Made by a program: the position numbers and the translations under genes. Positions 38,861 to 59,194 of a stretch of DNA of 64,000 nt are shown here, in pieces. How positions within the stretch are numbered: position 1 is the stretch's first letter; every line of letters begins with the position of its first letter. Source of the stretch: Bacilli bacterium (GTDB lineage: Bacteria; Bacillota_I; Bacilli_A; RFN20; CAG-826); assembly GCA_017626815.1 (NCBI GenBank), contig JAGAHY010000140.1, forward strand, positions 404 to 64,403, given 5' to 3'. The notes under the pieces were generated by a model. That model worked only from the letters and a program-made list of their open reading frames with translations, was not told the DNA's origin and searched no databases.

Positions 38861-38915
38861 AAGCCCGGTGCTGACACCATTGACTTGGATGTTAAACCGG
38901 GCTTTTCCTTCGTTT
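38861..38915 (+). terminator. Possible terminator after P1 (aagcccggt…accgggctt stem, large loop, T-rich tail)
   Basis: 9-bp stem with a 26-nt loop followed by ttccttcgtttta. The loop is atypically large. Confidence 0.3.
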
Positions 38916-40986: not shown

Positions 40987-40991
40987 GCGAA

Positions 40992-42174: not shown

Positions 42175-42284
42175 TTGTATGTCTATATCTTTCTGATTAC
42201 CGCTCGTTTTTTGCCATTTTGCTCAGCAAAAAAATTTTTCTCTTTTCTTTGACGGAACAACCAGGGCTCCAGACACCTAATTAA

Positions 42285-43628: not shown

Positions 43629-43792
43629 CAATCGAACCGATTCTTCTAAATATCGTTTGGGAGCTTTGCTTTTTGATTACCCATATCTATTTATTTTTGG
43701 CGGAGGGTTTTGAAAATGCGACATTTAGTTAGCGAAGGCATTCCGGATCAATTCTCGGCCTTCATCGATGACAAGACATCAAGGGAGAAAAA

Positions 43793-44668
43793 ATGAATAT
43801 CACTACCTTACTTACTACAGGCGCGCTGATCATGTCAGTCGCCACAACTTATCATAATCCAATTCGAATCAATACGAACTTCAGTCACTACGCTACTTCT
43901 AACGGTGATCAACTCGTGATTGACAACGCCGACGGAAGGCTGACTTATTATACGAACATTTACAAAATCGGCTTCACTTCCGTCAGCAATATTTATGTGT
44001 TGGATACTTGGTTCAAATGGGAACCTGGAAAGGCTTTAGGATCCCCTTATTACACCGATTCTCAGCTTGGAAAATGCACCATTCACGTTGAGCCCTATCG
44101 GTATGTTGACAACGAAAACAACAAAACCGGTGGATCCATGCGCCAAATCGCCGCTTGGCCAACTGCTGATACAGGAACAGCTTTCTCCTTTTCAGCCGTT
44201 TTTGGCGACTCTTATTCTGGCATATTTGTCAATGAATCGACCGAAGATAAATCTTATGTCTTAGGATATGGGTCGAATCTAATTGTCCCCCAAAACGGAG
44301 GAACCCCCTTCGAGGTACAGTACTTGAGATCAAACGCCGTCAGCCATTATTACAACCACTATGAATTGACTAACACGATTAACGACGTGCCTTTGTCTTA
44401 TTCTTCCTCGAACACGAATTACGACCATTATGTCAACGAATGGGTTTTTGAACCGGTTTACGGTGGATCCGGAATTACCACGTTTGACTTCCATACCATC
44501 GTTATGTTTGAGATGTCGAAAGCGACAATCAACGTTGGGGAAAATGCGATGTGCTACCTATACTCTTTCAAGACACAAAACAGATATCCCGAACCAGTCC
44601 TGTGGTGGACCGTTCCGTCTTTGGGGACAGAGTATACCTACTCAGTGGTTGGCGTCGCTGGCGTATGA
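43793..44668 (+). CDS. Secreted protein of unknown function, translationally coupled to the downstream ABC transporter
   Basis: 291 aa. Signal peptide. 4-nt overlap with the next start. Confidence 0.5.
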   Translation: MNITTLLTTGALIMSVATTYHNPIRINTNFSHYATSNGDQLVIDNADGRLTYYTNIYKIGFTSVSNIYVLDTWFKWEPGKALGSPYYTDSQLGKCTIHVEPYRYVDNENNKTGGSMRQIAAWPTADTGTAFSFSAVFGDSYSGIFVNESTEDKSYVLGYGSNLIVPQNGGTPFEVQYLRSNAVSHYYNHYELTNTINDVPLSYSSSNTNYDHYVNEWVFEPVYGGSGITTFDFHTIVMFEMSKATINVGENAMCYLYSFKTQNRYPEPVLWWTVPSLGTEYTYSVVGVAGV

Positions 44669-47484
44669 TTCGGCTGAACAATGTCAGGAAATCCTTTTAT
44701 CTACCCGGCAGGAACAGGATTGACGTAATTAAACATGCCTCCTTGGAACTTCCAGAGGCTGGAATGGTTTTCGTTTTAGGGAAATCCGGCTCCGGCAAAT
44801 CCACCCTCCTCAATTTAATCGGGGGTCTTATTTCCCCGAGCGCAGGCTCTATTGTCTTTTCCGGATTCAAAGGCGAAAAACCGAAGATCTCGTTCTGCTT
44901 CCAAGGCGGGAACGTCTTTGGCGAACTCACGGTGCTAGAAAATGTTCTGATTGCAAAAGCTAAGAAAGAAAAAGAAAGCGTAGGCAAGGCAAAGGACATT
45001 CTTGCTCAGATTGGGCTATCCGAATTGTCTGACCGTAAGGCATATATGCTTTCAGGCGGCGAGCAGCAGCGTTTAGCTTTGGCCAGAGCACTATATCAAG
45101 ACTCTGATGTGGTTTTGGCAGACGAACCAACCGGATCGCTCGACCGTGCCTCCTCGCTTGGAGTTTTTAATCTTCTCAAAGAGATTTCGGATTCTAGATT
45201 GGTACTTGTCGTATCCCACGATCAAGAGGCGGCGGAAAAATACGGCGATCGCATCATCCGAATCGAAGATGGAATTATTACTGATGTCTTTCGTCAAGAC
45301 CAAATAGTTGTTTCCGACGGATTAACCAGGCTCAAAGACAAATTGGCGCCGAACCCTGGCCTTGTTGCAAAGATTGCATGGCGCCAAGCTTTTCGTCGAC
45401 CTCTTGCCCTTTTGCTGACCATATTGCTGACCGGGCTTTCCCTTGGTGCGGCAATGTTTGGATTCGGGCTTGGGATGGGGGCTTCAGACACGAATGTGGC
45501 ATCGTCTGTGATCGCCTCTGGCATTGACAGCATCGTAGCGCTAAACACGATAAAGGGGGTCGACGTTGGATTTGGGCCCCTTGATCTTGCAGAGGCTGGG
45601 GAATTGTGCAAAGCCCCCTGCGTACCTCTATATAACATTCCTCATTCATATTCCTACGATAGTTACAGTTACCGCTTGGAGGTTTCTAAGCCGTGCGTTC
45701 ATAATCCGTTATTTCAATCGTCCCGTATCCGTTACTGCTTCCCGACAAATTTAGAGAACTTAAAAAACGTAGGCCTAGATTTGATAGCCGGCGCCCTTCC
45801 GACTGGATTAAGCGAGATCGTGGTCCCGTATTGCCAATATGAGGAATATGCAAACGCGGGTTTCCTCGGAACATCGGGCGGTATCCCTGCCACAGCCATC
45901 GCTGACCCGGCCAGCTTTTTATCTTATCGCCCCGCCATTTCTGTTTTCGGCCGTCAGATGGAAATCGTTGGGATTGTCGACACGCATCTTCCGGAAAAAC
46001 TATTTTCTTATGTTTCGGCGGACGAGCGAGACTTTTTTGGCAATATTTGCCAATCCGCCTATAAAACAGGTATCGAGAATTCTCTCCACGTCTGCGCGTT
46101 TGGAAGCCAGGACTTTTGCGACAATTTTGCCAAATCCGTGAGATTTATAGAAATTCCTGAGGGAGCCGTCGCTATCGCTTCGTGGACGGATGGCCAATCA
46201 TCTGTTTCCTCTTTTTCGAGAGCGTGTTCGGCTGGCGTTCAAACCGAAGAAAAAGAAGGCATTTTCGCCTCGGCGGAAATGCTACGCGCCAGCGCAGGTT
46301 TTGAAGTAAAAGCACCTTTTTACGATTTCGAAAATGCGAGCCTTTTTCGTATTCCGCGCTTTTCTTCCATCACTTCGAGTGAAACTTCGGTCGCGGGAAA
46401 AGCCTTCGCGCCATTGCCTGACTTAGGGATTAATAACGCTTTTGTGCTGTCGGCATGTTGCGATTATGTAAATCAGCAAGGCCTGCCATCCAATCGATAC
46501 CTTTTGGAGGTGAAGGCCAATGAGGATTTCTTAAAACTTAAGGCATTTGACAGTAGTGTCCAAATCCCGGATTTTGGAACTCCAGAAGGCGAGGACGTTC
46601 TGAAAACCTATTTCGCGTGGAGTTTATCTATGGGGGACTTCGGAATAGAGCAATACCCTCTATCCTCTTCCTTTTACAATGACGTTTTCGATATTGGCAT
46701 CACCGGAGAAACGATCGTTAGGGCGGCGACGATAGATCTACTTCGGAAAAACGATCTCCTCCCAAAGGGTAATGTTTCTTTGCGTATAGAAGGCGATTTT
46801 AGCTTTGATCAAGAATTCCCTTGCGCAGGCATCGCGGTTCTGCCCGGAGACGGAGACGGGAAACGTTGTTATTTAACAGATGGAATATTTGAAACGGTTG
46901 CCCAGGCTCTCCCAGACGGAAGAACGATGACCGCTTGCTGCTTTAAAACACCTTCTTTAGATGCCGTTACTTCTCTGTTTTCGCAATATAAGGCATCGTT
47001 TGGCTCTTCAAAGAGGGCCTATCGATCCGAAATTGCCCAATTCTCATTTGCCCAAGATTTCAAACAGCGCTTTGAGAATCTCCAAGATGTCATGATTTGG
47101 CTTTCCGTTGGGCTCTTCTCATTCAACATCCTGTTACAAGTCGTCTTTGCTCTTATCCGACTAGACGCCCAGGGGAAGACAGCAGGGCTTTTGCTGGGAA
47201 TCGGCGGGAGGTTGGCACATTTGTACCTCTTTTCCTCATTTTCTCAATTCATATCATCCGTGATAGGTTGCTTGGTTGGCGCTACAATCGCTGTGCTTGT
47301 TTCGGCCTCAATAAATGCAAACTTTATGGTGGAGACAGGATTAATGCTCCCTGTTTTCACTTTCCCTGTCGCCTTGGTTGTGACAATGGGGCTTGGGTCG
47401 ATTGCTCTGGTGCTATTGATGTGTTTTGCCAATTCTGTTGGTCTCAAGAAAAAAGGGGCAGCCACATTACTAAAAAGGGAATAG
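44665..47484 (+). CDS. Large MacB-like ABC transporter (ATPase plus extended extracytoplasmic domain plus FtsX-type permease)
   Basis: Start MIRLNNVRKSF. GKSGSGKST, LSGGEQQR, VLADEPTGSLD, VSHD. TM helix after the ATPase and a C-terminal 3-TM bundle. Confidence 0.8.
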   Translation: MIRLNNVRKSFYLPGRNRIDVIKHASLELPEAGMVFVLGKSGSGKSTLLNLIGGLISPSAGSIVFSGFKGEKPKISFCFQGGNVFGELTVLENVLIAKAKKEKESVGKAKDILAQIGLSELSDRKAYMLSGGEQQRLALARALYQDSDVVLADEPTGSLDRASSLGVFNLLKEISDSRLVLVVSHDQEAAEKYGDRIIRIEDGIITDVFRQDQIVVSDGLTRLKDKLAPNPGLVAKIAWRQAFRRPLALLLTILLTGLSLGAAMFGFGLGMGASDTNVASSVIASGIDSIVALNTIKGVDVGFGPLDLAEAGELCKAPCVPLYNIPHSYSYDSYSYRLEVSKPCVHNPLFQSSRIRYCFPTNLENLKNVGLDLIAGALPTGLSEIVVPYCQYEEYANAGFLGTSGGIPATAIADPASFLSYRPAISVFGRQMEIVGIVDTHLPEKLFSYVSADERDFFGNICQSAYKTGIENSLHVCAFGSQDFCDNFAKSVRFIEIPEGAVAIASWTDGQSSVSSFSRACSAGVQTEEKEGIFASAEMLRASAGFEVKAPFYDFENASLFRIPRFSSITSSETSVAGKAFAPLPDLGINNAFVLSACCDYVNQQGLPSNRYLLEVKANEDFLKLKAFDSSVQIPDFGTPEGEDVLKTYFAWSLSMGDFGIEQYPLSSSFYNDVFDIGITGETIVRAATIDLLRKNDLLPKGNVSLRIEGDFSFDQEFPCAGIAVLPGDGDGKRCYLTDGIFETVAQALPDGRTMTACCFKTPSLDAVTSLFSQYKASFGSSKRAYRSEIAQFSFAQDFKQRFENLQDVMIWLSVGLFSFNILLQVVFALIRLDAQGKTAGLLLGIGGRLAHLYLFSSFSQFISSVIGCLVGATIAVLVSASINANFMVETGLMLPVFTFPVALVVTMGLGSIALVLLMCFANSVGLKKKGAATLLKRE

Positions 47485-47648
47485 AGATTTATGGGCTGAA
47501 AAAGGCGTTAGGTTAGGCGCGAGCTATCGATTCAAAAAATAGGCGATATGTATTTATCGTGAAGATGGGCTAATTCAGGCTTTCAAAAGATATCTCTGGC
47601 ACGCGTTGGGCGGAACGCCAGGCCAACGGAGTTCGCGCATATCGCAGC

Positions 47649-47724
47649 GGTGGTGTTATACGTCAAAGATTTTTACGCGCGAAAAGTCAGATTATTTTCA
47701 AAGAACGCCTGGAAAATTGTGAGG
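47649..47724. repeat. Right arm of the inverted repeat pair (partner 30548-30624)
   Basis: See the left arm. Confidence 0.6.
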
Positions 47725-47772
47725 TCGCGGTTTTTCCTACTCAAGAGCCATTAGATTAAAGGAGGATACAAA

Positions 47773-49281
47773 ATGCAACTCTTAACGTTATTGCTTGCGG
47801 TGTCGACAACGACATCAACAGTCCCGGCGGATAGCGCCACCGCGGGAAACGCATCTTATAGACGCGATGATCTTTCCTTTGTCGATGATTTAGAGACCGG
47901 TGATCTTTGTGATTCGGCGCACGGAGGATTCGCTTATTTCGATGAGACAGGAACCGAACTTCCTTGGCAATCGCAAATTGATTTTGCGAATCGAGAAGGT
48001 GGAACAAGGACGTTCAACGATAATCGAGAAGACAACGACTCATTTCAAGAAGCATCATGCATGAGCCCGGTTGGTTTATGGGAAGGTGGAGTATATCAAC
48101 ATAGCGCATGGCTTGATGCCACAATCTCTCTAAAACGGAGCGGATTCTGGTGGTGGGAAACAACTTGGTTAGATGTAGATTACTATATTTTTGACGCGTG
48201 TTGTACGGGAACGATGTCTGCCCAATTGACCAATATCCCATCGGGCAAAGATTACGACCTAAAAGTTTGGAAGATGTGGGATGGTCCTAACGTATCGACT
48301 TCGGACCTGAATTTTAATCAGCCCTTTAATCAAAGTATAAATTCCGGAAACGCGAACGAGACACTTACGCTTGCTGTTACTCCTGGTACATATTTTTTCT
48401 GCGTATATCCAAAAAACAAAGACACCAATCTATCAAATTATGACGAAGACAACCCTTATCATCTTTATATAGAAGAAACCGTGGATGTTACTCGCCCCTA
48501 TAGTTCATATTCTATTTCTCAAGGTAAACTCAACGGCGACAGAGGGGCGTTGTGGATATCGGATTATGCACCACTCGGGCACACGCCTGTAACCTTGTCG
48601 AACGATCAAGCGAGGGTACAAATTATCAACTACGACACCTATCCTTTTATTCGCCATCTTGCGGATAAATACAATGGTACTACGGCAATTAACTACGCAG
48701 TCTTATATGTTTGGGACGTTCCGTTGCGGGCTTCCATCAGCCAATTAGCGGGCGAATTATATGATTTGGTGAATGATTGTGCTTCTTGGGAAGCAAACCA
48801 AGCCAAACAAGCCAGTATAGATTTTAACCGCGATAATTTAGTTGTGGCTTTGAGCGGATACGCTGTTTCTTATATATCTTTGGCAGTCACTGGCCCAGCC
48901 GGGCTTGCCCTAGCGGCCTTAGGGTTTGCTGTTTCGACGATAGGACTAGTTCTGGCGGAAGCCGGTTATCTTCTTGCCTATCAATCGCAGCCGACTTTTA
49001 CTACGACGAAAACAGACCTTCTAAACTATTTAGTAAGTGTTCAGCAAACCTTCGCAGTTGGACAAGGGAGCAACAATAACGAGGTGAAAATCCTTAGATT
49101 TCGCTATCGTTTCGATAACTCATCTGGACACTATCTCGACTGGTCCCCGTTTTACAAAAGCACCGATTATAATTTCTATAACGACAACATTATTACATGG
49201 CAAATCGAGGATTCCGGAATAGACGGAACCGTGCGAGGCATACAATCACTTAATGATGTCAAGAGTCTTTTGGGGGATTAG
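47773..49281 (+). CDS. Secreted protein with PPC-like beta-sandwich region and a C-terminal hydrophobic/amphipathic segment, unknown function
   Basis: 502 aa. Signal peptide. DVDYYIFD…GTYFFCVYP pattern. Long hydrophobic stretch ALSGYAVSYISLAVTGPAGLALAALGFAVSTIGLVLAEAGYLLAY. Confidence 0.45.
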   Translation: MQLLTLLLAVSTTTSTVPADSATAGNASYRRDDLSFVDDLETGDLCDSAHGGFAYFDETGTELPWQSQIDFANREGGTRTFNDNREDNDSFQEASCMSPVGLWEGGVYQHSAWLDATISLKRSGFWWWETTWLDVDYYIFDACCTGTMSAQLTNIPSGKDYDLKVWKMWDGPNVSTSDLNFNQPFNQSINSGNANETLTLAVTPGTYFFCVYPKNKDTNLSNYDEDNPYHLYIEETVDVTRPYSSYSISQGKLNGDRGALWISDYAPLGHTPVTLSNDQARVQIINYDTYPFIRHLADKYNGTTAINYAVLYVWDVPLRASISQLAGELYDLVNDCASWEANQAKQASIDFNRDNLVVALSGYAVSYISLAVTGPAGLALAALGFAVSTIGLVLAEAGYLLAYQSQPTFTTTKTDLLNYLVSVQQTFAVGQGSNNNEVKILRFRYRFDNSSGHYLDWSPFYKSTDYNFYNDNIITWQIEDSGIDGTVRGIQSLNDVKSLLGD

Positions 49282-49285
49282 ATAA

Positions 49286-49732
49286 ATGGTTGACTCTTTT
49301 TATGTGAAGGTTCCGCGGAAAAAATACATCACGATAGATTGGCCTTTTTATATTTGCTATGTTGTTTTCGCCATGTTAGGTTTGTTCCTTTTAGTTCGTG
49401 GCATTACAACATCCAACGAATATAACCGTTTCAATTATGTTGGTATTATTGGAGGAATTGCGTTTATCGTTGTTGGCATTGGTATAATTGTTGCCCATTT
49501 TTATCTTCGGCCTGCCGGTTCGCTTCTAGTTGAGATCACGACAAATGGAACTCTTGTTTTGACATCGAAAAATTTACCGCCGCAATCAATCAAACCGATT
49601 AAAACGGAAACGCGCAAAGACGGATGGATTATAATATTCGGATCATGGCGAAATAAAGTGCTGCTACCTCCTTTAGACGAAGATGGGAAGGAAACGGCAA
49701 AACGTCTAGAAAAGGTTTTTTGGTTCGATTAA
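49286..49732 (+). CDS. Small membrane protein (2 TM plus PH-like C-terminal domain)
   Basis: 148 aa, 5 nt after the upstream stop. Overlaps the 3' end of the opposite-strand zinc-ribbon ORF. Confidence 0.4.
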   Translation: MVDSFYVKVPRKKYITIDWPFYICYVVFAMLGLFLLVRGITTSNEYNRFNYVGIIGGIAFIVVGIGIIVAHFYLRPAGSLLVEITTNGTLVLTSKNLPPQSIKPIKTETRKDGWIIIFGSWRNKVLLPPLDEDGKETAKRLEKVFWFD

Positions 49733-49973
49733 ACCCGGCTTGCAAGAAGCGGATTAATTCACTGGTCCAAAACGCTCTCGGGTTTATTGAGACTTTATCG
49801 CTGGCTGAGATAAAAAACACCCTCCTTGTTTTGAGGTTATATTTTATTAATACACCATCAACAATCTCAAAAACTTGGTTACCTTTTTCTTGTAGATTAG
49901 CGCCACAATTAGAACAAAAGTTCGAACCGAGTGTATTCTGCTTACCGCAGTTTGGACAAAACTTTAAAGCCAT
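49629..49973 (-). CDS. Zinc-ribbon domain protein
   Basis: MALKFCPNCGKQNTLGSNFCSNCGANL is a canonical zinc ribbon. The C-terminal part overlaps 49286-49732, so one of the two calls may be wrong there. Confidence 0.4.
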   Translation of the reverse strand: MALKFCPNCGKQNTLGSNFCSNCGANLQEKGNQVFEIVDGVLIKYNLKTRRVFFISASDKVSINPRAFWTSELIRFLQAGFNRTKKPFLDVLPFPSHLRLKEVAALYFAMIRIL

Positions 49974-50084
49974 ACAATAACCCCCTTAAAATTTATATCA
50001 CTCAACAAATAAACCGGAAGGTCACCGACCAACAGATAACGTTTCTCGACTATCTAGATTAATAATTATTTTCCTGAACTTATT

Positions 50085-50093
50085 TGATACAAT
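50085..50093 (+). promoter_or_regulatory. Extended -10 element TGaTACAAT upstream of P2
   Basis: 23 nt before the ATG at 50117, with an AGGAG RBS in between. Confidence 0.35.
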
Positions 50094-50116
50094 GAAAAAA
50101 ACAGGAGTTCACTAAA

Positions 50117-50413
50117 ATGAAAGAAGAGTTATTTAAAGCCCTAAGCGAAGAGCAAATGGCTAAATTAAAAGATTGTAATAATGTTGAAGAATTACTCGCT
50201 CTTGCTAAACAAGAAGGCATTGAACTTACTGATGATCAACTCGAAGCTGTCAATGGCGGTTGTGGTACTACTACAGGGTATTGGGGATGCCCTTACTGTG
50301 GTTATCGTTGGGGCGCCGAGAGTATAGGGTACCCCCGCCTTAGATGCTTTGGCTGTGGCCGTGAATATAACGCCAATGATAGAAAATATTTTCAAATCAA
50401 TAAGAATAAATAA
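50117..50413 (+). CDS. RiPP-type precursor peptide P2 (Nif11-like leader, GG, zinc-ribbon-like core)
   Basis: Leader MKEELFKALSEEQMAKLKDCNNVEELLALAKQEGIELTDDQLEAVNGG. Core CGTTTGYWGCPYCGYRWGAESIGYPRLRCFGCGREYNANDRKYFQINKNK. Confidence 0.7.
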   Translation: MKEELFKALSEEQMAKLKDCNNVEELLALAKQEGIELTDDQLEAVNGGCGTTTGYWGCPYCGYRWGAESIGYPRLRCFGCGREYNANDRKYFQINKNK

Positions 50414-50484
50414 TTCGTCAAAAAGATACCTATATAAGCAATAGATATGCTTGCTAAATGATAATGATCGGAGTGAACAACTAT

Positions 50485-50751
50485 ATGAGAGATGAATTAT
50501 TAAAAGGCTTAACCGAAGAGCAAATAAAGAAATTAAAAGAATGCAAAACACAAGAAGAAATCATAAGTCTCGCGAAAGAGGAAGGCGTTGAATTAACTGA
50601 TGAACAATTAGCGTCCATCTCTGGCGGAGGATGCAGAGGTGGCAGATGTCCTAAATGCGGTAGCGATTATACTTGCTGCTACGGTATTGGCAAATATGAA
50701 TGTAGTAAATGCCAATATCACTGGGGAGAGGATGAATACATCCCAAATTAA
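50485..50751 (+). CDS. RiPP-type precursor peptide P3
   Basis: Start at MRDELLKGL; the ORF-track start at 50458 is upstream of it. Leader …LTEEQIKKLKECKTQEEIISLAKEEGVELTDEQLASISGGG. Core CRGGRCPKCGSDYTCCYGIGKYECSKCQYHWGEDEYIPN. Confidence 0.7.
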   Translation: MRDELLKGLTEEQIKKLKECKTQEEIISLAKEEGVELTDEQLASISGGGCRGGRCPKCGSDYTCCYGIGKYECSKCQYHWGEDEYIPN

Positions 50752-51018
50752 TTTCTATTAGGTATTGTTTTATCATGATGAATTCTATGTCTATGATTTA
50801 GGATTTCAGCAAAAACAAAAAAACTCTTAACAGATTTAGCTGATAAACAATTTAAACAAGCAAGGCTTTGAAAAAAGACCGGAACTGAAAAAACAGCGAA
50901 TTGTCTATCAATAAATTAAAAAGATAATAAAAACCACCGTTTAAAGAGGAAAAACCGAAAAACCTCACAAATACCGAGTATTTATCGATAACTATGAATC
51001 GAATATTATAATGATTTC

Positions 51019-51336
51019 ATGGATGACAAAATAGAGTATCAAATTTTTATCGGATGCCATGACCAATATTTTAATAATGAATATGTGACGAGCAAAGAAC
51101 TCAAAGAATTGATTGTTGAGTTTTTTGCTAGGCGAGAAGTTGATTTTTCATTGTTTTATGCGCAAGGTGGCTATTTATATGAGGATGGAAATTTTCAAAT
51201 TGAGAATTCTGTTTGTGTCAACATTATCGGCGCGGATGAAGGGGAGATTTTCCAATTAGCGAAAAACCTCTCAATGTATATGAGCCAAGAAAGCTCATTG
51301 ATCATTAAAAACCCTATTAAAATAGAACTTTTGTAA
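51019..51336 (+). CDS. Small AT-rich protein, tandem paralog 1 (unknown; candidate immunity or accessory protein)
   Basis: 105 aa. Shares a Y.IFIG…FSL….GGY…E.S…II..DE.EI pattern with the next ORF. Confidence 0.45.
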   Translation: MDDKIEYQIFIGCHDQYFNNEYVTSKELKELIVEFFARREVDFSLFYAQGGYLYEDGNFQIENSVCVNIIGADEGEIFQLAKNLSMYMSQESSLIIKNPIKIELL

Positions 51337-51346
51337 GGATTTTGTT

Positions 51347-51670
51347 ATGCTCAAAAAAGGTTTTAAATACGAAATATTTATTGGTGTTAAAGATAAGGAT
51401 ACTTATTTAGAAACTTTAAGCATTGATGAAGTTAAAGATATCCTTAAAGAAGTGTGCAAAGATAAAGAAATCAACTTTTCCCTGTTAACACAAGACGGGG
51501 GTTATAAACATCATAAAGGCTATACAACCGAGACCAGTTTAAGAGTCATTATCATCGATATTGATGAAAAAGAAATTATCTCCTTGGTGGATATCTTAAA
51601 AAGAAGAATTAACACCGACACTATCATGGTCACAAAGACTGAAATTGAGTATTGTTTTTCGTTTTGGTGA
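51347..51670 (+). CDS. Small AT-rich protein, tandem paralog 2
   Basis: 107 aa. Paralogous to 51019-51336. Confidence 0.45.
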   Translation: MLKKGFKYEIFIGVKDKDTYLETLSIDEVKDILKEVCKDKEINFSLLTQDGGYKHHKGYTTETSLRVIIIDIDEKEIISLVDILKRRINTDTIMVTKTEIEYCFSFW

Positions 51671-51896
51671 TAATTTTATAAATCATGCCAACTGACAAAC
51701 TAAATGCAAGTTTTTAGGCGCGACCCGCGTTCAGTCCGACAAACGGCCCCCTTCTAATGCCGTTGACATGTGAACACCCTCGACGCCATTGAAAGAAGAT
51801 TTCCGAACGCATTCATCTTTATGCCGACTTAACACTTTTTACAAGGTTGACTAGCGCAAAAAGCCAATGTAAGACTTTCTTACCAAGGAGTATTTT

Positions 51897-52154
51897 ATGC
51901 CAGTCCAAGTAATCACGATGTCTACTAAAGGCCAAATAGTCTTGCCAAGAGAGATGAGGGAAGCGCTCTCTCTCGAAGCGGGTTCGAAGCTTGCTGTTTT
52001 CTGCGAGGACGGCGCAATTGTGCTCAAACCGCTTTCCGTCCCTTCTGCCGACGATTTCCGCGAATCCTTAAAAAAAGCGCAGGCATGGGCCATCGATAAC
52101 GGTTATTCGGAAAGTGATGTAAAGGACATCATCAAAGAGGCCCGGAAGAAATAA
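51897..52154 (+). CDS. AbrB/MazE/SpoVT-family antitoxin
   Basis: 85 aa. Swapped-hairpin motif MSTKGQIVLPREMREALSLEAGSKL. Confidence 0.7.
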   Translation: MPVQVITMSTKGQIVLPREMREALSLEAGSKLAVFCEDGAIVLKPLSVPSADDFRESLKKAQAWAIDNGYSESDVKDIIKEARKK

Positions 52155-52548
52155 AGGTTGTCGTTGACACGAACGTTTTTATTTCCGGCGTGTTTTTCGG
52201 AGGGAAGCCGCAAAGGGTTTTGGAGAAAACCGTCGACGGCGAGGTATGCGGGCTGTGCAGCGTCGAGATCCTGAACGAATACCGAGGAATCGTTAAACGA
52301 ATGGTTGAGAAGAAGGGCGGCACCCTTGACTCCGTTTTCTAAACCCCTTCTATTTGAAGCTGCAATTTGTTGCAGTCTCCACCGTTGTCAAAGAATGTAG
52401 AGACCCAGGCGACGACAAATTCCTTGCCTGTGCGCTGGACGGGGCAGCCTATTATGTAGTTAGCGGCGATTCAGATCTTCTGAGCATGCGCGAATACAAA
52501 GGAATCAAGATAGTTACAGCCAACGAGTTTTTGGAGTTGCTTAAATAA
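52151..52548 (+). pseudogene. PIN-family toxin split by a frameshift near 52330-52350 (N-terminal part …VVVDTNVFISGVFFGGKPQRVLE…; C-terminal part = ORF 52354-52548 …CRDPGDDKFLACALDGAAYYVVSGDSDLL…KGIKIVTANEFLELLK)
   Basis: The two halves are in different frames. The N-terminal part has no ATG and overlaps the antitoxin stop. Confidence 0.5.
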
Positions 52549-52727
52549 CACAAAGGCGGGGCTTTGAACCGCTGAAGAAGATATCCGCCCGCCTCTTTTG
52601 AGAGGTTGCCGATCAAATCAAAGGGCTCGATTACTCGCAATCCAACAATGATTTAAGGTGGTCTAACACCCCAACCAAGAAGTTTCGCCGCCATTGTGAG
52701 GAGGCCTTATTGTGCTTCCCTTATGTT

Positions 52728-52834
52728 CCGGTTCCGGTTTCAACTTCTTGGCTTTATGTTCCAACTGCCTACACAGGGCAGATCGAGACTGCTGCAATGT
52801 TAAGTTTGAGAGAGCCGCAAAAGTAGGCTTGCCG
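52728..52834. repeat. Repeat family A, copy 3 (diverged; contains CTTATGTTCC twice)
   Basis: ctacacagggcagatcgagactgctgcaatgttaagtttgagagagccgcaaaagtaggcttgccg versus 26521-26580. Confidence 0.5.
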
Positions 52835-53292
52835 TCAAAACTTTTTGGAAATGTCGCTTTTTGGAACGAAGGCAAGTTTTATTGATTTGATTCGCGAATG
52901 GAATTTGGGCATAGGTAAGTAAGAGCCGTTTCCCCGCTTTCGTCGCCCGATTACGCACACAAAAGCAGTAGGGGGCGTAAAACGCGGGTTTTGCAAGTAT
53001 GTACGAGCAAAACATATTCACACCAATGAATCTGTGGCCCAGGATTGACTTGGCAAACAATCCGACTAAAACCTAATTGAATTCGAAAAAAGTCAGAAAG
53101 GAGCGTTTTGACGATGTATATTACACGCGCATAAAACCACATTTTTTGATAGGCGACGAGAAATCTATCATATGAAGGTATGCTTCATTAGGAAATTGAA
53201 AAATACGGTTTCCGCTTGTGACCAAAAAGGAAACAAGAAAATAAGAGGGGATTATGGTGAGAGGGTCCTTAATGCGACTTCGCGTTAGTCTT

Positions 53293-53508
53293 CTACAACC
53301 CATTGTGCCCGTAACTCAGGCATTCGTATTCCTTCACCCAATCGGCTCTTGGGATGCGACACGTATTGGCGCTTTGACAATGGGGGCATGGAGGGAGTTA
53401 GGCCTGGCAATTGCCACCAGAGACGGCCTCCAGTTGATCGTCGTTAAGCTCGACACCTTCTTCTTTGGCGACCATCAAGATTTCTTCCTGGCTTTTGTTT
53501 GGTTTGCT
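53293..53508 (-). pseudogene. Decayed precursor-peptide paralog P5 (…SKPNKSQEEILMVAKEEGVELNDDQLEAVSGGNCQA*LPPCPHCQSANTCRIP…)
   Basis: Leader second half plus GG plus a CPxC core, with an in-frame TAA after the first core residues. The first half of the leader is missing. Confidence 0.5.
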
Positions 53509-53661
53509 TTATCCTGCCTCAGGAATGTAGGGATAAGGCTTGCGTCACCTTATTGTCCTGTCGAAGATTGGCAAAAAGCGCCGCTAAAGATTTCTTCGCC
53601 CCTTATTCGTATCATTGGGCGATTTAACCATAATCGGCATGGGATTTGCCGCTGAAATTCG

Positions 53662-53687
53662 AAAAAAGCCATCCGATAAAGGATGGC
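53662..53687 (-). terminator. Intrinsic terminator downstream of P4 (gccatcc…ggatggc stem plus U-run on the minus strand)
   Basis: 7-bp stem, 6-nt loop, 6 T on the coding strand. Confidence 0.5.
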
Positions 53688-53737
53688 AAAATTGTTGGAT
53701 TTTAGAAATTTTAATGGGCTTTTGCGGGTTGAAGCGA

Positions 53738-54013
53738 TCAGGATATGACGCCTTTGGCCCTTCTGAATTTATGGCCGCAGTGGGGGCAGGTGTAGTTGTA
53801 ATAATCGTCGCAGCTGCTGCCGTCGATTTTTTGCCCGCAGTTGGGGCAATCGATGTCGTTGAGGCAGTTGCCGCCGGAGACGGCTTCTAATTGCTCGCTA
53901 GTAAGCTCGACGCCTTCTTCCTTTGCAATTCTGAGGAGTTCATCCTGATTATTGCAGGCTTTGACTTTCGCGATTTGTTCTTGGGTCAGCCCATGTAGTA
54001 ATTCTTCTTTCAT
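53738..54013 (-). CDS. RiPP-type precursor peptide P4
   Basis: Leader MKEELLHGLTQEQIAKVKACNNQDELLRIAKEEGVELTSEQLEAVSGG. Core NCLNDIDCPNCGQKIDGSSCDDYYNYTCPHCGHKFRRAKGVIS. AAGGAG RBS 8 nt upstream. Confidence 0.7.
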   Translation of the reverse strand: MKEELLHGLTQEQIAKVKACNNQDELLRIAKEEGVELTSEQLEAVSGGNCLNDIDCPNCGQKIDGSSCDDYYNYTCPHCGHKFRRAKGVIS

Positions 54014-54064
54014 GGTGGTTCTCCTTTTCAGTTTCAGTATATCAAGAGAACATTGGGCGCAAAA

Positions 54065-54472
54065 TCAAATTTTCTTCTTCAGCGTCAGGATGTTTTTATT
54101 GTCTACGCGGCAATAAGTGGTCTCGTCCATGACGTTTTTGACGATGAAGATACCAAGCCCGCCGATTTGGCGGCTTTCTGCGGGAAGAGCAATATTGGGG
54201 TCTTCTTTCGCTAAGGGATCAAACGCTTTGCCGCTATCGGCGATGATGATCGTCAAAAGACGGGTTTCCTCATCGAAGTCATAATCGATTTCGATGTCAC
54301 CCGTGCCCGGTTCATAGGCATAGGAAGCGATGTTGGTATAGAGCTCGTCTAGGGCCAACTCGATCTTGTTGAGCAACTTAAAGTCGGCGTCGTGGTCTTC
54401 CAGCAGGGCAATGATGGGCTCGATGCCTTTGGCGATGACTTTTTTATCCGCGGGAATGACGATATGTTTCAT
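54065..54472 (-). CDS. RsbW/SpoIIAB-like anti-sigma factor / serine kinase (HATPase_c)
   Basis: 135 aa. G-box GGLGIFIVKNVMDE. 4-nt overlap with the upstream phosphatase gene. Confidence 0.7.
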   Translation of the reverse strand: MKHIVIPADKKVIAKGIEPIIALLEDHDADFKLLNKIELALDELYTNIASYAYEPGTGDIEIDYDFDEETRLLTIIIADSGKAFDPLAKEDPNIALPAESRQIGGLGIFIVKNVMDETTYCRVDNKNILTLKKKI

Positions 54473-56016
54473 TGTTCTTCACACCCCCTGTATTCCAAGC
54501 ACAGCATCGTGATGTCGTCGAATTGGTCGTTGGTTCCCATAAAGACCTTTAATTCGTCCAACATGCTTTTGCAAATGACTTCCGGAGTTTCATATTCGTA
54601 TCTTTGCAAGGCTTTTAAGGCGCGTTCTAGCTGATATTGGCCGTCGTTACCGACGCATTCTGGGACACCGTCGGTATATACAAAGACCTTGGAGCCCTTT
54701 TCTAATTGGATTTGGTATTCGCGGTAAGGGACCCCATCCATAAAGCCGACGACCAAGTCGTGTTTATCTTTATAGATCTCGAAATTGGCGCCCGCCCCTT
54801 TGATGATCGGATATTCGTGGCCGCCATTCGCGGCGGTTAATAGGCCGGTTTTTAAGTCTAACGTGGCAAACCACACCGTGACGAAGAGACGGTGCTGATG
54901 GTTGGCGCATAGCTGTTTGTTTGCTTTATAGAGGACTTCTTTCGGCGAAAGCCCCATCATGGCGTAGTTTTGCAGGATGATTTTGCTTTGCATCATGAAC
55001 AAAGCGGAAGGGACGCCCTTATCGGAGACGTCGGCGATGACGATGCCGAGGTGGTCTTTGTCGATGAGAAAGAAGTCGTAGAAGTCACCGCCGACTTCTT
55101 TGGCGGGGTGCGTCAGCGCATAGATATCGAATTCTTTATGGTCGGGGAAGGCCGGGAATTTGTTGGGCAAGGCGTCCATTTGGATGCTGGTGGCGAGATT
55201 TAGTTCTTTGCTTTTGGAATAGAGGAGTTTTTCGTTGTCGTAGGACAGCAAAGAATAAACCAGCACCAAGGCGATCATCATGCCAGGATAGGAGACGGAG
55301 AGGCCTTCTTCTCCCCAAGCGGCGAGAAGGCCAAACACGGGGATGCCAAGGAAGACGACGACGACGATCTTGTTGCGCAACTTCTGCTTGGAGATGAATA
55401 ACGAGACAATCGCAACGATGAAAATCAGCGTCATATAGATGTCGCCGATCCAATAGGTCTCGGAAGCGACGGGGAATCCGGTTTCGAGATCGATGGTGAA
55501 ATAGAGGGGGTAGAAGAAATTGACGAACGACAGAAGGGCGAAAATCACGCCCAAGGCAAACAGGATGATATCTAAGACGGCAGCGACTTTCCTTTTGGTG
55601 CTTAGCGTGTGGGAGATGTAGAGCCAATAGCCGAAGCCGAACACTATTTCCGCGAGGTACACCAAGATGACCATGATGCGGCTTAGGGTGGCCAGGCCGT
55701 TTCCGGCAATGCACATCTTTGAGATGTCCACAAAGCACAAGAAGCAACCTATGGTCAGCAAGATGACGAACATTTCGACGCGAACGCCTTGCCTTTTATA
55801 AGCGGGAAGGAGGGTGGCGACGATGACGATCGCGATCATGATAGTGACGATCTCCGCGCCGATGGAAAAACCGAAGTTCGCTTCGGTGTAGTCAAAGATT
55901 TCAATGATGGCGACGGCCCCGACCAAGAACGCGCACATTAAGCCGAACATGACGGGAATCAGCCATGGTCTTTTGCTGATTGCTTCAACAGTATTATTTT
56001 GTTTTTCCATAACCAA
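54469..56016 (-). CDS. Membrane-bound PP2C-type serine phosphatase (RsbU/SpoIIE family) with an N-terminal ~8-TM sensor region
   Basis: 515 aa. PPM motifs GGDFYDF, IADVSDKGVPSALFM, YTDGVPE, DDITML. Confidence 0.8.
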   Translation of the reverse strand: MVMEKQNNTVEAISKRPWLIPVMFGLMCAFLVGAVAIIEIFDYTEANFGFSIGAEIVTIMIAIVIVATLLPAYKRQGVRVEMFVILLTIGCFLCFVDISKMCIAGNGLATLSRIMVILVYLAEIVFGFGYWLYISHTLSTKRKVAAVLDIILFALGVIFALLSFVNFFYPLYFTIDLETGFPVASETYWIGDIYMTLIFIVAIVSLFISKQKLRNKIVVVVFLGIPVFGLLAAWGEEGLSVSYPGMMIALVLVYSLLSYDNEKLLYSKSKELNLATSIQMDALPNKFPAFPDHKEFDIYALTHPAKEVGGDFYDFFLIDKDHLGIVIADVSDKGVPSALFMMQSKIILQNYAMMGLSPKEVLYKANKQLCANHQHRLFVTVWFATLDLKTGLLTAANGGHEYPIIKGAGANFEIYKDKHDLVVGFMDGVPYREYQIQLEKGSKVFVYTDGVPECVGNDGQYQLERALKALQRYEYETPEVICKSMLDELKVFMGTNDQFDDITMLCLEYRGCEEQ

Positions 56017-56165: not shown

Positions 56166-57341
56166 ATGACGGACAAAGAGACCCTCACCTTGATGTGGAA
56201 GGACTACGAAGTGCTTTCCTTCGAGGTGAATTACGAAAAATATGGCCTTCAGTTCTTGGAAGAGAAAGAGCATTTTGATAAAGCCCCCTATGACTTGGCA
56301 AAGGCAAAAGACAAACGCCTTGGCCTACTTCGCTTTTTCGGCAGTAGGGCGATTCCCTCCATGCGCAGCGGTTTCCAAGCCATCATGGATGCGACGCATT
56401 GCCGCAATGAATTGGAACTATCGTTTAAAGGGCATGGGCTCTCCCTCTCCAGTCATTATTGGATCAAACGGGAAGGGGAGAATCTCCGCTATGAGGACAT
56501 CAATTTTTTTACCCACCAATGGGATGATTCTTTCGGCAGGGCTCTCCTGCGCGGTGACTATGAGGCGCTAGGGGGATGCGATTTCAATGTCCCTGACATC
56601 ACCACCCCGGGATGGGGAAACAAAGGCTGGCTCTATGAAGACGGGCCTAAGCTTTATAAGCGCGGCTTAGATCCCGAGCATTCCGAAGAGGCGATATGTG
56701 AAGTCTTAGCGTCAAGCATCGCGAGCAGGATCATCCCTGGCGGCGAAGTCCTTCCCTACGAACTAAGGAAATTCGACGGGAAGTATGTTTCGGTTTCTTC
56801 CTGTTTCCTCGGAATGGACGAGGAATTGGTCCCCTTATCTTCTATTTTGTCCGCGGAGTTATCGGAGCTTTATCGGGAAAAGGCCAGGAACAAAGACCTG
56901 AATAAAGAATTTTTCGATAAGCTCGCCCAAACTGGCTACGCCGAGTGGTCGACGTTCTTCGTCAAGGTGGCGTGCTTACGTTCCCTGTGCTTTGTTTCCG
57001 ATTTGCATTTTGGCAACCTCTCCGCGATCCAAAACATGGAGACCGGAGCATTAAGGCTCGCCCCGATTTACGATTTCGGCGGCGCCTTTGGCTCTTCGGC
57101 GAAAGGGAGGCAATTCCTTGCTAACGCGAATAAAGCGGCCTTCTTGCTCATCTATTTCGTGTATGGGGACCTCAATCCCGATTGGGATTATTCGTGGTAT
57201 GATCCCAATCGGCTCATCGGCGCGGAAGAGGAGATCCGGGACTATTTATCCAAAACAGGTTTTTATACGCCAGAGTACATCGACTGTGCTCTTGACATCT
57301 TCAGGCGGCAGAAGAAAATGTTGGATGAAATGAAAAAATAA
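56166..57341 (+). CDS. Protein with a HipA_C-like kinase-fold signature (…SDLHFGNLSAI…LAPIYDFG…), function unknown
   Basis: 391 aa. The D-x-H-x-x-N-L-S and LAPxYD motifs resemble the HipA catalytic and Mg-binding loops. Ends 13 nt before radical-SAM maturase 2. Confidence 0.4.
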   Translation: MTDKETLTLMWKDYEVLSFEVNYEKYGLQFLEEKEHFDKAPYDLAKAKDKRLGLLRFFGSRAIPSMRSGFQAIMDATHCRNELELSFKGHGLSLSSHYWIKREGENLRYEDINFFTHQWDDSFGRALLRGDYEALGGCDFNVPDITTPGWGNKGWLYEDGPKLYKRGLDPEHSEEAICEVLASSIASRIIPGGEVLPYELRKFDGKYVSVSSCFLGMDEELVPLSSILSAELSELYREKARNKDLNKEFFDKLAQTGYAEWSTFFVKVACLRSLCFVSDLHFGNLSAIQNMETGALRLAPIYDFGGAFGSSAKGRQFLANANKAAFLLIYFVYGDLNPDWDYSWYDPNRLIGAEEEIRDYLSKTGFYTPEYIDCALDIFRRQKKMLDEMKK

Positions 57342-57353: not shown

Positions 57354-58748
57354 ATGTATTATCGATTAAAAGACACTATTGCATTACGAAAATGGAGATA
57401 CGTTGAACGCGCCGTATACCGCAAGGGCGTGGAGAACGCCTTCGGTGTGACCGAAGCGGAATTCGAGCTTTTGCAGCAGTGCGATGGGGAAACGGACATC
57501 GAGCCCAATCCTTACTTGGCTGGCTTGCTCGACCGCCAGCTCATCGAGCCTTGCGAAAAGGGCCAGAAGGCGAATCCGTGGTCCTTGCTCCATACCTATG
57601 ATAATTATTACTTCCCGAAGATGAACCTTATGATCACCGGGAAATGCAACTTGAATTGCCTCCATTGTTTTAACGCGAAAGACAACGCCCCCTTAAATAC
57701 GGAACTTTCCTATGAGCAGGTGCTGAATATCCTCGATCAGGCCCGCGATATCGGCGTGCACGCGTTCACGATCACCGGTGGCGAGCCGCTGGTGCACAAA
57801 CGCTTCCTCGATATCGTCCGCGCCATCTATGAAAGAGATATGTTCATCTTCGAATTGAACACAAATGGCTTGCTCATCACCCAGGAGATGCTGGATGTCT
57901 TTAAGGAACTAGGGTGCTACCCGCTAATCAAGATTTCTTTCGATGGCGTCGGCTACCATAACTGGATCCGCCAGCATCCTAAGGCGGAAGAGCTTACCCT
58001 TAAAGCCATCGAACTTTGCATCAAAAACGGCTTTGCGGTGAAGGCGCAAGTCCAAGTGAACCGTAAAAACGTCGATTCCATGGAAAAGACCGCGAGGCTT
58101 TTAAACGACATGGGCGTCACGGAGATGCGCATCATCCGCACCACGGAAGCGCCCCGCTGGGAAAAGAATTCGCCCAATTCTTCGTTGACGATCGAGGAAT
58201 ATTTCGAGCAAATGACGGCTTTTGCCAAGAATTATATGCAAAGTGATATGACCATGACTATCGACATTTGGCAGTTGATGAGACTTTATCCATCCGCGAA
58301 AACGTATGATCTCGTCCCCATCGCCTGCGACAAGGACGAATTTAATATCCGCATCCCCATGTGCAAAGGAAACCGTGGCATGATCGCGATTTCTTCGAGT
58401 GGAGAAGCGGTGCCCTGCTTGCAAATGTCAGGCTGGTTCCTCGAACGGGGAATCAGTCTTGGAAACGTCTTGAAAACCCCGTTAAAAGAGCTGGTCACCA
58501 AAAGCGATTACCTCAACCTCGCGATGGCGACGTTGCTGAAGCAAATCCTCGAAAACGATAAGTGTGGCAACTGCAAATACTATAAGGCCTGCACGGGTGG
58601 TTGCCCCGCCTTAGGATTGCTCTATTCCAAAAACGGTGATTATTATCATGAAGATGTGACAAAATGTGCTTTCTTTGAAAATGGCTGGTATGATTTAATA
58701 GTAAAAGAATTGGCGTCTTGGCGCCTATTGAAACCCCTCAACATCTGA
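57354..58748 (+). CDS. Radical SAM/SPASM-domain peptide-modifying enzyme (maturase 2)
   Basis: 464 aa. CNLNCLHC. SPASM cluster CGNCKYYKACTGGCP…C. Confidence 0.85.
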   Translation: MYYRLKDTIALRKWRYVERAVYRKGVENAFGVTEAEFELLQQCDGETDIEPNPYLAGLLDRQLIEPCEKGQKANPWSLLHTYDNYYFPKMNLMITGKCNLNCLHCFNAKDNAPLNTELSYEQVLNILDQARDIGVHAFTITGGEPLVHKRFLDIVRAIYERDMFIFELNTNGLLITQEMLDVFKELGCYPLIKISFDGVGYHNWIRQHPKAEELTLKAIELCIKNGFAVKAQVQVNRKNVDSMEKTARLLNDMGVTEMRIIRTTEAPRWEKNSPNSSLTIEEYFEQMTAFAKNYMQSDMTMTIDIWQLMRLYPSAKTYDLVPIACDKDEFNIRIPMCKGNRGMIAISSSGEAVPCLQMSGWFLERGISLGNVLKTPLKELVTKSDYLNLAMATLLKQILENDKCGNCKYYKACTGGCPALGLLYSKNGDYYHEDVTKCAFFENGWYDLIVKELASWRLLKPLNI

Positions 58749-58800: not shown

Positions 58801-59190
58801 ATGAAAAAAGAAAACGTCACTATCTCTAGCCCTGATGAGCTAAACGCGCATCTGCAGTCTTCCTCTCCTATTACCTGGATTGCTTTAGGCACGGTTATCG
58901 CCCTCATCCTTGGACTGTTTGTTTGGTCCGGTGTTTACGAACTCCCGATTATGATTTCAGGCGCCGCCTCCGTCACCAACGGCATCGCCAGTTTGACCGT
59001 GGAAGAACGGGCGAAGGATAAACTCGAGGCGGGTCAAAAAATCTACATTTTGGACAAGGACGGGTATCTCTCTTTTGACGAAGAAAACAACCCCGTTGTC
59101 TTAAACATAGATCTCAGCGACGGGCAATACACCTATCGCACGGATACCGAGCTTGAAAAGATTCGACCCATCCAATATTTATTCAGGTAA
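58801..59190 (+). CDS. Small single-TM protein (possible short membrane-fusion/accessory component of the exporter)
   Basis: 129 aa. TM ITWIALGTVIALILGLFVW. Immediately precedes the C39-ABC gene. Confidence 0.4.
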   Translation: MKKENVTISSPDELNAHLQSSSPITWIALGTVIALILGLFVWSGVYELPIMISGAASVTNGIASLTVEERAKDKLEAGQKIYILDKDGYLSFDEENNPVVLNIDLSDGQYTYRTDTELEKIRPIQYLFR

Positions 59191-59194
59191 CACC

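Follow-up and report, generated by a model that had tools for sequence, protein, structure and literature searches.

The locus considered here raises the question of why one bacterial genome should carry several small genes whose products begin alike and end quite differently, and how such a set of genes could have arisen. It is found on contig JAGAHY010000140.1 of a Bacilli bacterium (assembly GCA_017626815.1), from which a stretch of 64,000 nt was analyzed (hereafter the window; all positions are counted within it). The initial annotation had described four of these genes, P1 to P4, as a diversifying peptide arsenal rather than housekeeping zinc-ribbon proteins. Our analysis suggests that P1-P4 are probably the precursor peptides of one system of the RiPP type (peptides that are made by ribosomes and modified after translation). 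The arsenal is supported by a Nif11-like leader ending in Gly-Gly (GG), an exporter with a C39 peptidase domain, a radical S-adenosylmethionine (SAM) maturase and a recurrent gene set in related genomes, whereas the word "diversifying" finds no support, as discussed below. A six-frame scan combined with a hidden Markov model (HMM) of the leader revealed four intact and two decayed precursor copies in the window:

38406-38675, plus strand: precursor P1, 89 aa (GTG start 10 nt after AAGGAG; 48-aa leader, 41-aa core, 7 Cys)
38684-38743, plus strand: leader remnant, KEELLQGLTEEQ followed by LEAASGG and then a stop
50117-50413, plus strand: precursor P2, 98 aa (48-aa leader, 50-aa core, 5 Cys)
50485-50751, plus strand: precursor P3, 88 aa (48-aa leader, 40-aa core, 7 Cys)
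53293-53508, minus strand: P5, a 5'-truncated pseudogene just past the P4 terminator
53738-54013, minus strand: precursor P4, 91 aa (48-aa leader, 43-aa core, 6 Cys)

The arrangement originally reported was confirmed: P1 is located 11.7 kb upstream of P2 (12 kb had been given), P2 and P3 form a tandem with a spacing of exactly 71 nt, and P4 is on the opposite strand, where an RsbW-like gene (54065-54472) lies 51 nt upstream of it on the same minus strand. The leader remnant next to P1 lacks a core and has an internal deletion between two TEEQ repeats; over the first 36 nt it agrees with the P1 leader at 34 positions, over its 3' part at only 18 of 30, and it is read as a recombination scar. 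P5 lacks about the first 20 codons of the leader, has an in-frame stop in the core after NCQA and has lost the second CxxC. By eye, its core was likened to that of P0050, a precursor from a Bacilli metagenome-assembled genome (MAG).

All four leaders are 48 residues long, align without indels and end in V/I-S/N-G-G. They are conserved as had been claimed, although the measured pairwise identity (56-77% for amino acids and 69-74% for nucleotides) extends below the 70-80% first given. The cores (40-50 aa), which were said to share only a Cys scaffold, indeed need many gaps to be aligned and are 25-47% identical in the aligned columns, a large share of the matches being Cys. Median identity is 79% for the leader versus 26% for the core. 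In an alignment of 77 sequences, G47 and G48 are invariant right at the boundary of conservation, and beyond them the core is conserved only at its Cys residues, as is also seen in 152 cores. Leader residue 20, a Cys within K-A-C-K-N (e.g., 38463-38465), is invariant in the same alignment and is replaced by Phe in several of the short-core precursors described below. All four leaders align, below the cut-offs, with the same positions (21-51 of 68) of TIGR03798 and the Pfam family Nif11 (PF07862), and some database homologs of P1 carry a precomputed PF07862 match. They also match models of double-glycine bacteriocin leaders, nearly all below cut-off; with TIGR01847, P2 scores 16.4 bits, above the cut-off of 15.7, and P3 scores 15.2 bits.

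The long cores follow a common plan. In 141 of 152 distinct sequences, the residue one or two places past GG (+1 or +2) is the first Cys, followed by a stretch rich in G, S, T and P, and the first CxxC starts a median of 8 residues after it. This first knuckle is CPxC, with Pro in 137 of 149 cases, and precedes 13-27 residues, a further CxxC and a tail of 4-24 residues, so that 149 of the 152 contain at least two CxxC motifs 13-27 residues apart. Long cores have 5-7 Cys and a length of 35-65 aa. An AlphaFold2 (AF2) model of P1, built on the 77-sequence alignment, shows the leader as three helices (predicted local distance difference test score, pLDDT, 53-66), a disordered linker around GG and a core of three strands (pLDDT 74-86). 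The best local matches of this core in the PDB are the zinc ribbons of NrdR, VdcD, Dof and Rpb9/TFIIS (34-41 columns, root-mean-square deviation 1.6-2.5 Å), and the core tails give scattered sub-threshold zinc-ribbon matches in Pfam and NCBIfam. The CPxC...CxxC module is predicted from the model to fold as a zinc ribbon.

Such a fold could suggest that P1-P4 stay inside the cell as small zinc-ribbon proteins bearing a helical domain at the N-terminus, perhaps as partner-switching regulators, and are not secreted. The sub-threshold zinc-ribbon matches and the position of P4 in line behind SpoIIE-like and RsbW-like genes would be consistent with this. It is nevertheless highly improbable, since GG is invariant exactly where conservation ends, core conservation is limited to Cys, up to 19 paralogs surround a C39-peptidase exporter and a peptide maturase in one related locus, and a class of short cores without zinc ribbon bears the same leader. 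The genes on which the secreted-peptide reading depends are found beside P4 (labels such as L001 denote related loci; ABC, ATP-binding cassette; RRE, RiPP recognition element):

54065-54472, minus strand: RsbW-like anti-sigma factor/serine kinase (HATPase_c_2, Pfam E 3.2e-22; match to RsbW models weak)
54469-56016, minus strand: membrane-anchored SpoIIE/PP2C-type phosphatase (Pfam SpoIIE E 1e-45)
56166-57341, plus strand: 391-aa protein encoded immediately upstream of the maturase gene, conserved with 50-59% identity in 11 loci
57354-58748, plus strand: radical SAM/SPASM peptide maturase with an RRE-like N-terminal domain (Radical_SAM E 2.5e-22, SPASM E 2.2e-6)
58801-59190, plus strand: 129-aa single-pass membrane protein, an HlyD-like N-terminal stub (TIGR03794, 27 bits versus a cut-off of 156)
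59153-61372, plus strand: ABC exporter with an N-terminal C39 double-glycine peptidase, NHLM ABC1 type (Peptidase_C39 E 3.4e-32; TIGR03796, 820 bits versus 853)
61388-63571, plus strand: partner ABC exporter subunit, NHLM ABC2 type (TIGR03797, 660 bits versus 709)
63587-63880, plus strand: STAS-domain (anti-anti-sigma-like) protein (Pfam STAS E 7.7e-13; same slot filled in L001 and L030)

TIGR03796 and TIGR03797, the export pair of NHLP/Nif11 microcins, are the best families of both exporter subunits, which fall just under the cut-offs. The true start of ABC1 is probably the ATG at 59192, judging from start-codon context. The 129-aa stub has one hydrophobic segment, visible in the translation, and is conserved in 21 loci. 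The partner-switching trio of SpoIIE, RsbW and STAS type (54065-56016, minus strand, and 63587-63880, plus strand) accompanies the cluster in many genomes, and no sigma factor gene adjoins it.

The maturase is below every NCBIfam cut-off (e.g., PapB, 68 bits versus 340; StsB, 83 versus 625; TIGR04103, 72 versus 725), and its best sequence match in the PDB is the sactisynthase SkfB. In the AF2 model (predicted template modeling score 0.80; pLDDT 87-95 for residues 1-80), SuiB and SkfB are the best folds, matched over the full length with E about 1e-13; from topology and alignment length we infer that the N-terminal domain is a leader-binding RRE. The 391-aa protein gave nothing usable in single-sequence searches of Pfam and NCBIfam, while HipA_C matches 6 of 12 family members (best E 0.00097), a profile leads to CtkA in the PDB (E 4.9e-5), and hhalign weakly (probability 1.3%, E 0.041) relates its DLHfxN...YDLG stretch to the HipA protein at 1478-2353 of the window. 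These matches weakly suggest a HipA/CtkA-like kinase, which might be a second tailoring enzyme or a regulator. LanM, LanB, LanC and YcaO are absent from the window ORFs (open reading frames) scanned, and the first three also from the gene tables of L001-L004 and L030-L032.

Between P1 and P2 (42285-43628), the window encodes another radical SAM/SPASM enzyme, with the ranthipeptide maturase PapB as its best match (143 bits versus 340). No Cys-containing small ORF flanks it as a precursor, and no homolog of it was found in the related loci. Its neighbors in the region 40036-49973 include an ECF-type (extracytoplasmic function) sigma factor at 41608-42174 (minus strand), a 977-aa ABC protein and orphan genes that appear Ser/Thr/Asn-rich by eye.

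The same gene set recurs widely. P1 has 732 homologs (90% clustering) in a set of 5.8 billion proteins, none with a functional name and several sharing one contig, and the nearest are 75-92% identical over the full length; a profile search of a 1.84-billion representative set gave about 490 clusters at E<=1e-10. For the maturase more than 1800 homologs were found, the best 120 listed being 75-98% identical. A scan of species-representative genomes yielded 25 loci, essentially all from rumen MAGs, and several metagenome contigs were found besides. Maturase identity to the window is 71-82% in the Erysipelotrichaceae/Bacilli loci and 64-68% in the Lachnospiraceae/Pseudobutyrivibrio loci. The gene order maturase, 129-aa protein, ABC1, ABC2 is kept across the 25 loci, the RsbW-like gene is present in most of them, and SpoIIE-type and 391-aa genes in many; L003 contains a LytS-type kinase pair. 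Counted with the leader HMM, 19 precursors are clustered around one maturase in L001, and L030 has 12 (11 with a complete leader). In L018 (JAFUHJ010000089.1) the maturase/exporter cluster (71% identity) and a precursor are binned as a Methanomethylophilaceae archaeon, which probably reflects an error of binning and not a transfer into archaea. The precursor family is unnamed in all sources searched and no description of it was found in the literature searched in full text, where the leader string 'LEAVSGG' led to streptococcal class II bacteriocins only.

Many relatives also contain a second precursor class, with the same leader and a core of 13-21 aa that has one Cys and a basic tail (e.g., ACSDSTEDSKKDHKRYDK and GCDNTKPKKRIIED). 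In at least nine relatives, a precursor of this kind is directly upstream of the maturase:

L003, 15136-15333: short-core precursor
L006, 9805-9996: short-core precursor
L009, 4603-4788: short-core precursor
L011, 905-1090: short-core precursor
L012, 6533-6715: short-core precursor
L013, 9779-9967: short-core precursor
L014, 9792-9983: short-core precursor
L015, 9614-9811: short-core precursor
L016, 9783-9968: short-core precursor

It is conceivable on this basis that the radical SAM enzyme acts on the short-core precursor only, being idle or devoted to another target in the window, and that the long cores leave the cell without modification, in the manner of class II double-glycine bacteriocins, as small secreted zinc-binding or disulfide-bonded proteins. 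The predicted self-folding of the core into a three-stranded zinc ribbon and the P2 score above the TIGR01847 bacteriocin-signal cut-off also agree with export of this kind. However, the leader HMM found no short-core precursor in the window, L001 or L030, and all three keep a full-length maturase with 74-98% conservation. The Cys at +1/+2 is common to long and short cores, as are the small or hydroxyl residues after it, a context that an export signal alone would not need; moreover, a class II GG leader is much shorter than the 48-aa three-helix leader found here, and the maturase has an RRE-like domain. Export without modification is therefore considered unlikely, and by an indirect argument the zinc-ribbon cores are likely maturase substrates as well, because loci without short cores keep the enzyme and the N-terminal Cys context is common to both classes.

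Expression signals were another part of the initial annotation, in which several copies were credited with a promoter and terminator of their own. The following candidates were located:

38370-38383, plus strand: promoter-like extended -10 motif TTGATATAATGAAA, upstream of P1 (match to TTGATAYAMTGAAA)
38860-38906, plus strand: hairpin with U-rich tail, terminator candidate downstream of P1 and the remnant (dG -29.1 kcal/mol, z -6.0; 0 of 200 shuffles as stable)
50084-50097, plus strand: promoter-like extended -10 motif TTGATACAATGAAA, upstream of P2 (match to TTGATAYAMTGAAA)
53668-53687, minus strand: intrinsic terminator of P4, a 7-bp stem followed by UUUUUU (dG -12.8 kcal/mol, z -4.3; 0 of 200 shuffles as stable)
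54032-54045, minus strand: promoter-like extended -10 motif TTGATATACTGAAA, between the RsbW-like gene and P4 (match to TTGATAYAMTGAAA)

Of the extended -10 boxes proposed for P1, P2 and P3, those before P1 (TGATATAAT) and P2 (TGATACAAT) stand, whereas that of P3, 'TGATAATgat', is weak and misses the final T of the -10 hexamer, and a box before P4 (TGATATACT) had been overlooked. The ribosome-binding sites at P1 (AAGGAG) and P2 (CAGGAG) are of the AAGGAG type, as stated. The 14-nt motif TTGATAYAMTGAAA, which includes the extended -10 box, occurs three times in 64 kb versus 0.07 expected, a count whose pattern was built from the same three sites, so that its weight rests on their common distance of 18-22 nt before the starts of P1, P2 and P4 and on its absence elsewhere in the window. 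In related loci, 20 of 54 precursors have a TGnTAnn[AC]T box in the 70 nt ahead of them, with few exceptions at 29-40 nt from the start, and most of these precursors appear by eye to open a row of genes. A two-hexamer sigma-70 scan found no -35/-10 pair before any precursor, the signal being an extended -10 without -35; Rfam and tRNA scans of the region gave no matches.

The P4 terminator is as clean as had been described. No terminator-like hairpin comparable to those of P1 and P4 follows P2 or P3, and because P3 lacks the TTGATAYAMTGAAA motif and the P2-P3 spacer is unstructured (folding z +0.78), the two genes probably form one bicistronic transcript. A promoter and terminator of their own can thus be assigned, at the level of consensus, to P1 and P4; P2 has the box only and P3 neither. 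A further element, resembling GTGGCAC-N4-TGTGACA, was observed a few bases upstream of a TGnTAnnAT box in L003, L006, L009, L011-L013, L016, L017 and L029, where it stands before first-in-row precursors. It could be an operator or an unusual -35 region; a sigma-54 reading was rejected by eye, as the spacing gives GG-N10-AC and not GG-N10-GC, and the window contains no match to the element with up to 3 mismatches.

How did the cores become so different? Between the paralogs of the window, the leaders have 0.16-0.26 non-synonymous versus 0.50-0.83 synonymous differences per site (pN and pS), corresponding to a dN/dS (omega) of about 0.1-0.4, while the cores have a pN of 0.34-0.53. The proposed comparison of dN/dS in leader and core gives no readable value for the cores of P1-P4, because their synonymous sites are saturated. 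Those of the leaders are saturated too, from which the duplications are taken to be old, and the codon comparison indicates strong purifying selection on the paralogous leaders. Orthologs can be compared directly. Sixteen P2-type ortholog clusters (71-95% identical) show 88.7% leader and 86.3% core identity to P2, and six P1-type clusters 83.7% and 86.0% to P1. Comparison with the L030 orthologs gives omega values of 0.18 (leader) and 0.32 (core) for P2 and of 0.15 (leader) and 0.09 (core) for P3, whose core is identical at 38 of 40 residues. Judged by these alignments, leader and core diverge equally within a core type and both are under purifying selection. Uniform divergence, which was expected to speak against the initial annotation, is therefore seen among orthologs and not among paralogs, and the label "diversifying" is unsupported at the level where change can be followed.

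Exchange between leaders and cores is suggested when precursors of different genomes are compared. Over 13,041 pairs drawn from 162 long-core precursors, leader and core identity are uncorrelated (Spearman -0.01). Where leader identity reaches 90% or more (297 pairs), the cores are unrelated in 261; where core identity reaches 70% or more (80 pairs), the leaders stay below 80% in 36. In one pair, the cores are identical and the leaders only 73% identical. The leader of P0005 is closest to that of P2 (81%) and its core is 88% identical to P1; viewed by eye, this precursor is a mosaic of a P1-like start, a P2-like mid-leader and a P1-type core. In L008, the stretch between the RsbW-like and STAS genes is collinear with that of the window (70-76% nucleotide identity), yet the P4 slot holds an unrelated core; a core of P4 type (63% identical) is found in a precursor of L001. 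The tandem pair of the window gives a further example:

50035-50779, plus strand: P2-P3 block, 745 bp, inside a low-GC island at 49.6-51.7 kb (GC content 31-36% versus 45-52% around it)

This block is 86.7% identical at the nucleotide level to copies in L030, L031 and L032 (GC 32-34%), where it is directly upstream of the homolog of the 391-aa protein and the maturase; on the same contigs, the maturase is 73% and the exporter (ABC genes) 69% identical to the window. Since a low-GC block is about 87% identical to copies in low-GC relatives, the P2-P3 block was probably acquired laterally.

In principle, the cores could instead be changing actively where they lie, driven after local duplication by positive selection or by targeted hypermutation, with the leaders protected. 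The non-synonymous divergence of paralogous cores, 2-3 times that of the leaders and accompanied by many indels, might suggest such a process, as might L001, in which leaders look alike by eye while cores differ. It appears quite improbable, even more so than export of unmodified cores, given that leader pS between paralogs is saturated and points to old duplications, that leader and core diverge equally within a type with omega <0.35, that the same or almost the same core is found behind diverged leaders in separate genomes, that P2-P3 probably came in as a block of foreign GC, and that the window ORFs scanned include no reverse transcriptase or diversity-generating element. The repertoire looks more like a set of old discrete core types, re-assorted by leader recombination and lateral transfer of cassettes, with ongoing gain and loss.

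Taken as a RiPP system, the locus could work as follows. Each precursor consists of a 48-aa Nif11-like leader, helical in the model of P1, that ends in Gly-Gly, and a core of 40-50 aa. The common leader would dock any precursor, whatever its core, on the RRE-like domain of the maturase (57354-58748), which would then tailor the core, most likely by a Cys-derived cross-link near the conserved N-terminal Cys. The C39 domain of the exporter (59192-61372, acting with 61388-63571 and the HlyD-like stub) would subsequently cut after GG47-48 and the core would be exported. Production would probably be gated by the SpoIIE-type phosphatase, the RsbW-like kinase and the STAS protein. Leader, ribosome-binding site and extended -10 box would be held constant by purifying selection because, as we propose, they must fit one enzyme and one exporter, while core types would be re-assorted between genomes by leader recombination and lateral cassettes, P2-P3 being an imported block; copies would also be lost, as suggested by the remnant beside P1 and the P5 pseudogene beside P4.

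Several points weigh against this scheme. Precursor anatomy, conservation, synteny and co-occurrence are observed, but chemistry, cleavage, export and transcription are all deduced from sequence. The leaders score under the family cut-offs (16.1-23.5 bits versus 32.3 for TIGR03798; 18.1-23.7 versus 23.8 for PF07862), and the fold-search E-values of the core are not significant (best 0.07), as is to be expected at this domain size. For a radical SAM enzyme, a core with a predicted zinc-ribbon fold of its own would be an unusual substrate, and in many relatives the enzyme may truly act only on the short-core precursor encoded beside it. Because the maturase belongs to no characterized equivalog, its type of modification can only be guessed; a Cys-derived thioether is the default suggested by its kinship with SkfB and SPASM enzymes. 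Furthermore, 120 of the 162 long-core sequences compared are top hits to P1, so that leader identity is inflated in this sample, and no immunity gene was recognized in the window.

Several known systems resemble the locus in part. Prochlorosins are Nif11-leader class II lanthipeptides of Prochlorococcus and Synechococcus, with the precursors ProcA and the enzyme ProcM. Like them, the present family has many precursor genes per genome, partly clustered and partly scattered, with unrelated cores, a conserved leader ending in GG that resembles Nif11 below the cut-offs, a C39 ABC exporter closest to the NHLM type and one maturase presumed to serve all precursors. In contrast to prochlorosins, the maturase is a radical SAM/SPASM protein, with neither LanM nor another lanthionine enzyme in the window ORFs scanned or the gene tables of related loci; the leader is 48 aa long, shorter than the 68-position TIGR03798 model, which it matches partially and below cut-off; the cores are longer (35-65 aa) and built on a fixed CPxC...CxxC scaffold; and the hosts are anaerobic rumen Firmicutes instead of cyanobacteria, with a partner-switching set attached.

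Cys-rich cores and a SPASM radical SAM maturase with an N-terminal RRE-like domain are shared with sactipeptides (SkfA/SkfB, ruminococcin C) and ranthipeptides (SCIFF/CteB, freyrasin/PapB). Ruminococcin C also has multi-copy precursors. Unlike in those systems, the maturase here is far below all curated equivalogs (PapB, CteB/SCIFF, StsB, RumMC), the leader resembles Nif11, and a pair of CxxC knuckles spaced by 13-27 residues is not among their known patterns. The combination of a Nif11-type leader and a radical SAM maturase is also represented by the model-only systems TIGR04064 (rSAM_nif11) and TIGR04103 (rSAM_nif11_3), although neither radical SAM enzyme of the window is a member (57354-58748, 72 bits versus 725 for TIGR04103; 42285-43628, 93 versus 519 for TIGR04064). 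With class II double-glycine bacteriocin loci, the common features are a GG leader and a C39 ABC exporter, several peptide genes per exporter and regulatory genes, whereas the leader here has three times the length and is helical, the operon includes a conserved radical SAM maturase, an immunity gene is not recognizable, and regulation apparently depends on SpoIIE/RsbW/STAS and not on pheromone, histidine kinase and response regulator. Overall, the logic is that of Nif11-derived precursor systems, whose family definition follows Haft et al. 2010 (PMC2887384), with prochlorosins as the nearest case. The enzymology, in turn, suggests a system of sacti- or ranthipeptide-like kind.

The biological role of the products is most likely antagonism of a bacteriocin-like kind, and signaling is possible. 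A more far-reaching suggestion, which is possible though doubtful as a whole, is that the family represents an undescribed RiPP class of rumen Firmicutes, in which libraries of radical-SAM-tailored zinc-ribbon mini-proteins, with up to about 20 unrelated cores, share one enzyme and one exporter, SpoIIE/RsbW/STAS control replaces the two-component pheromone circuit, and a new cross-link is made at the N-terminal Cys, possibly aided by a HipA-like kinase.

The window looks like an island of accessory genes. Downstream of P2-P3, the low-GC island contains two tandem orphan genes (51019-51336 and 51347-51670, plus strand; 105 and 107 aa), which may be paralogs. They match no Pfam or NCBIfam family and have no homolog in the related loci, and were rejected as immunity genes for these reasons. 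Between P3 and P4 (51897-52548, plus strand), a MazE/AbrB-type antitoxin precedes a PIN-domain toxin broken by a stop, a decayed pair. Two similar gene pairs (7206-11416 and 32025-36296, plus strand) each consist of a fusion of a helix-turn-helix domain and an ABC ATPase (738-746 aa) followed by an ABC ATPase/FtsX-type permease (675-687 aa). A HipA C-terminal kinase domain (1478-2353, minus strand) and a HipA N-terminal coupling domain (6001-6579, minus strand) are 3.6 kb apart with an S8 subtilase between them, and an AbiEii toxin (25642-26445) and a Fic protein (27241-28284) are also present.

If the proposed reading is true, the family would be a counterpart in anaerobes of the prochlorosin system, in which many unrelated cores depend on a single leader, a single promiscuous enzyme and a single exporter, but based on radical SAM chemistry and on cores resembling folded zinc ribbons. 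It is abundant in rumen metagenomes and travels between Bacilli and Lachnospiraceae. It would offer a natural test of how much substrate variety a radical SAM maturase can tolerate, and a possible new peptide scaffold. It also provides a documented case in which the diversity of precursors comes from re-assortment of old core types and not from fast local evolution. In addition, the conserved link to partner switching, as seen in gene content, may be a lead on how RiPP production is regulated.

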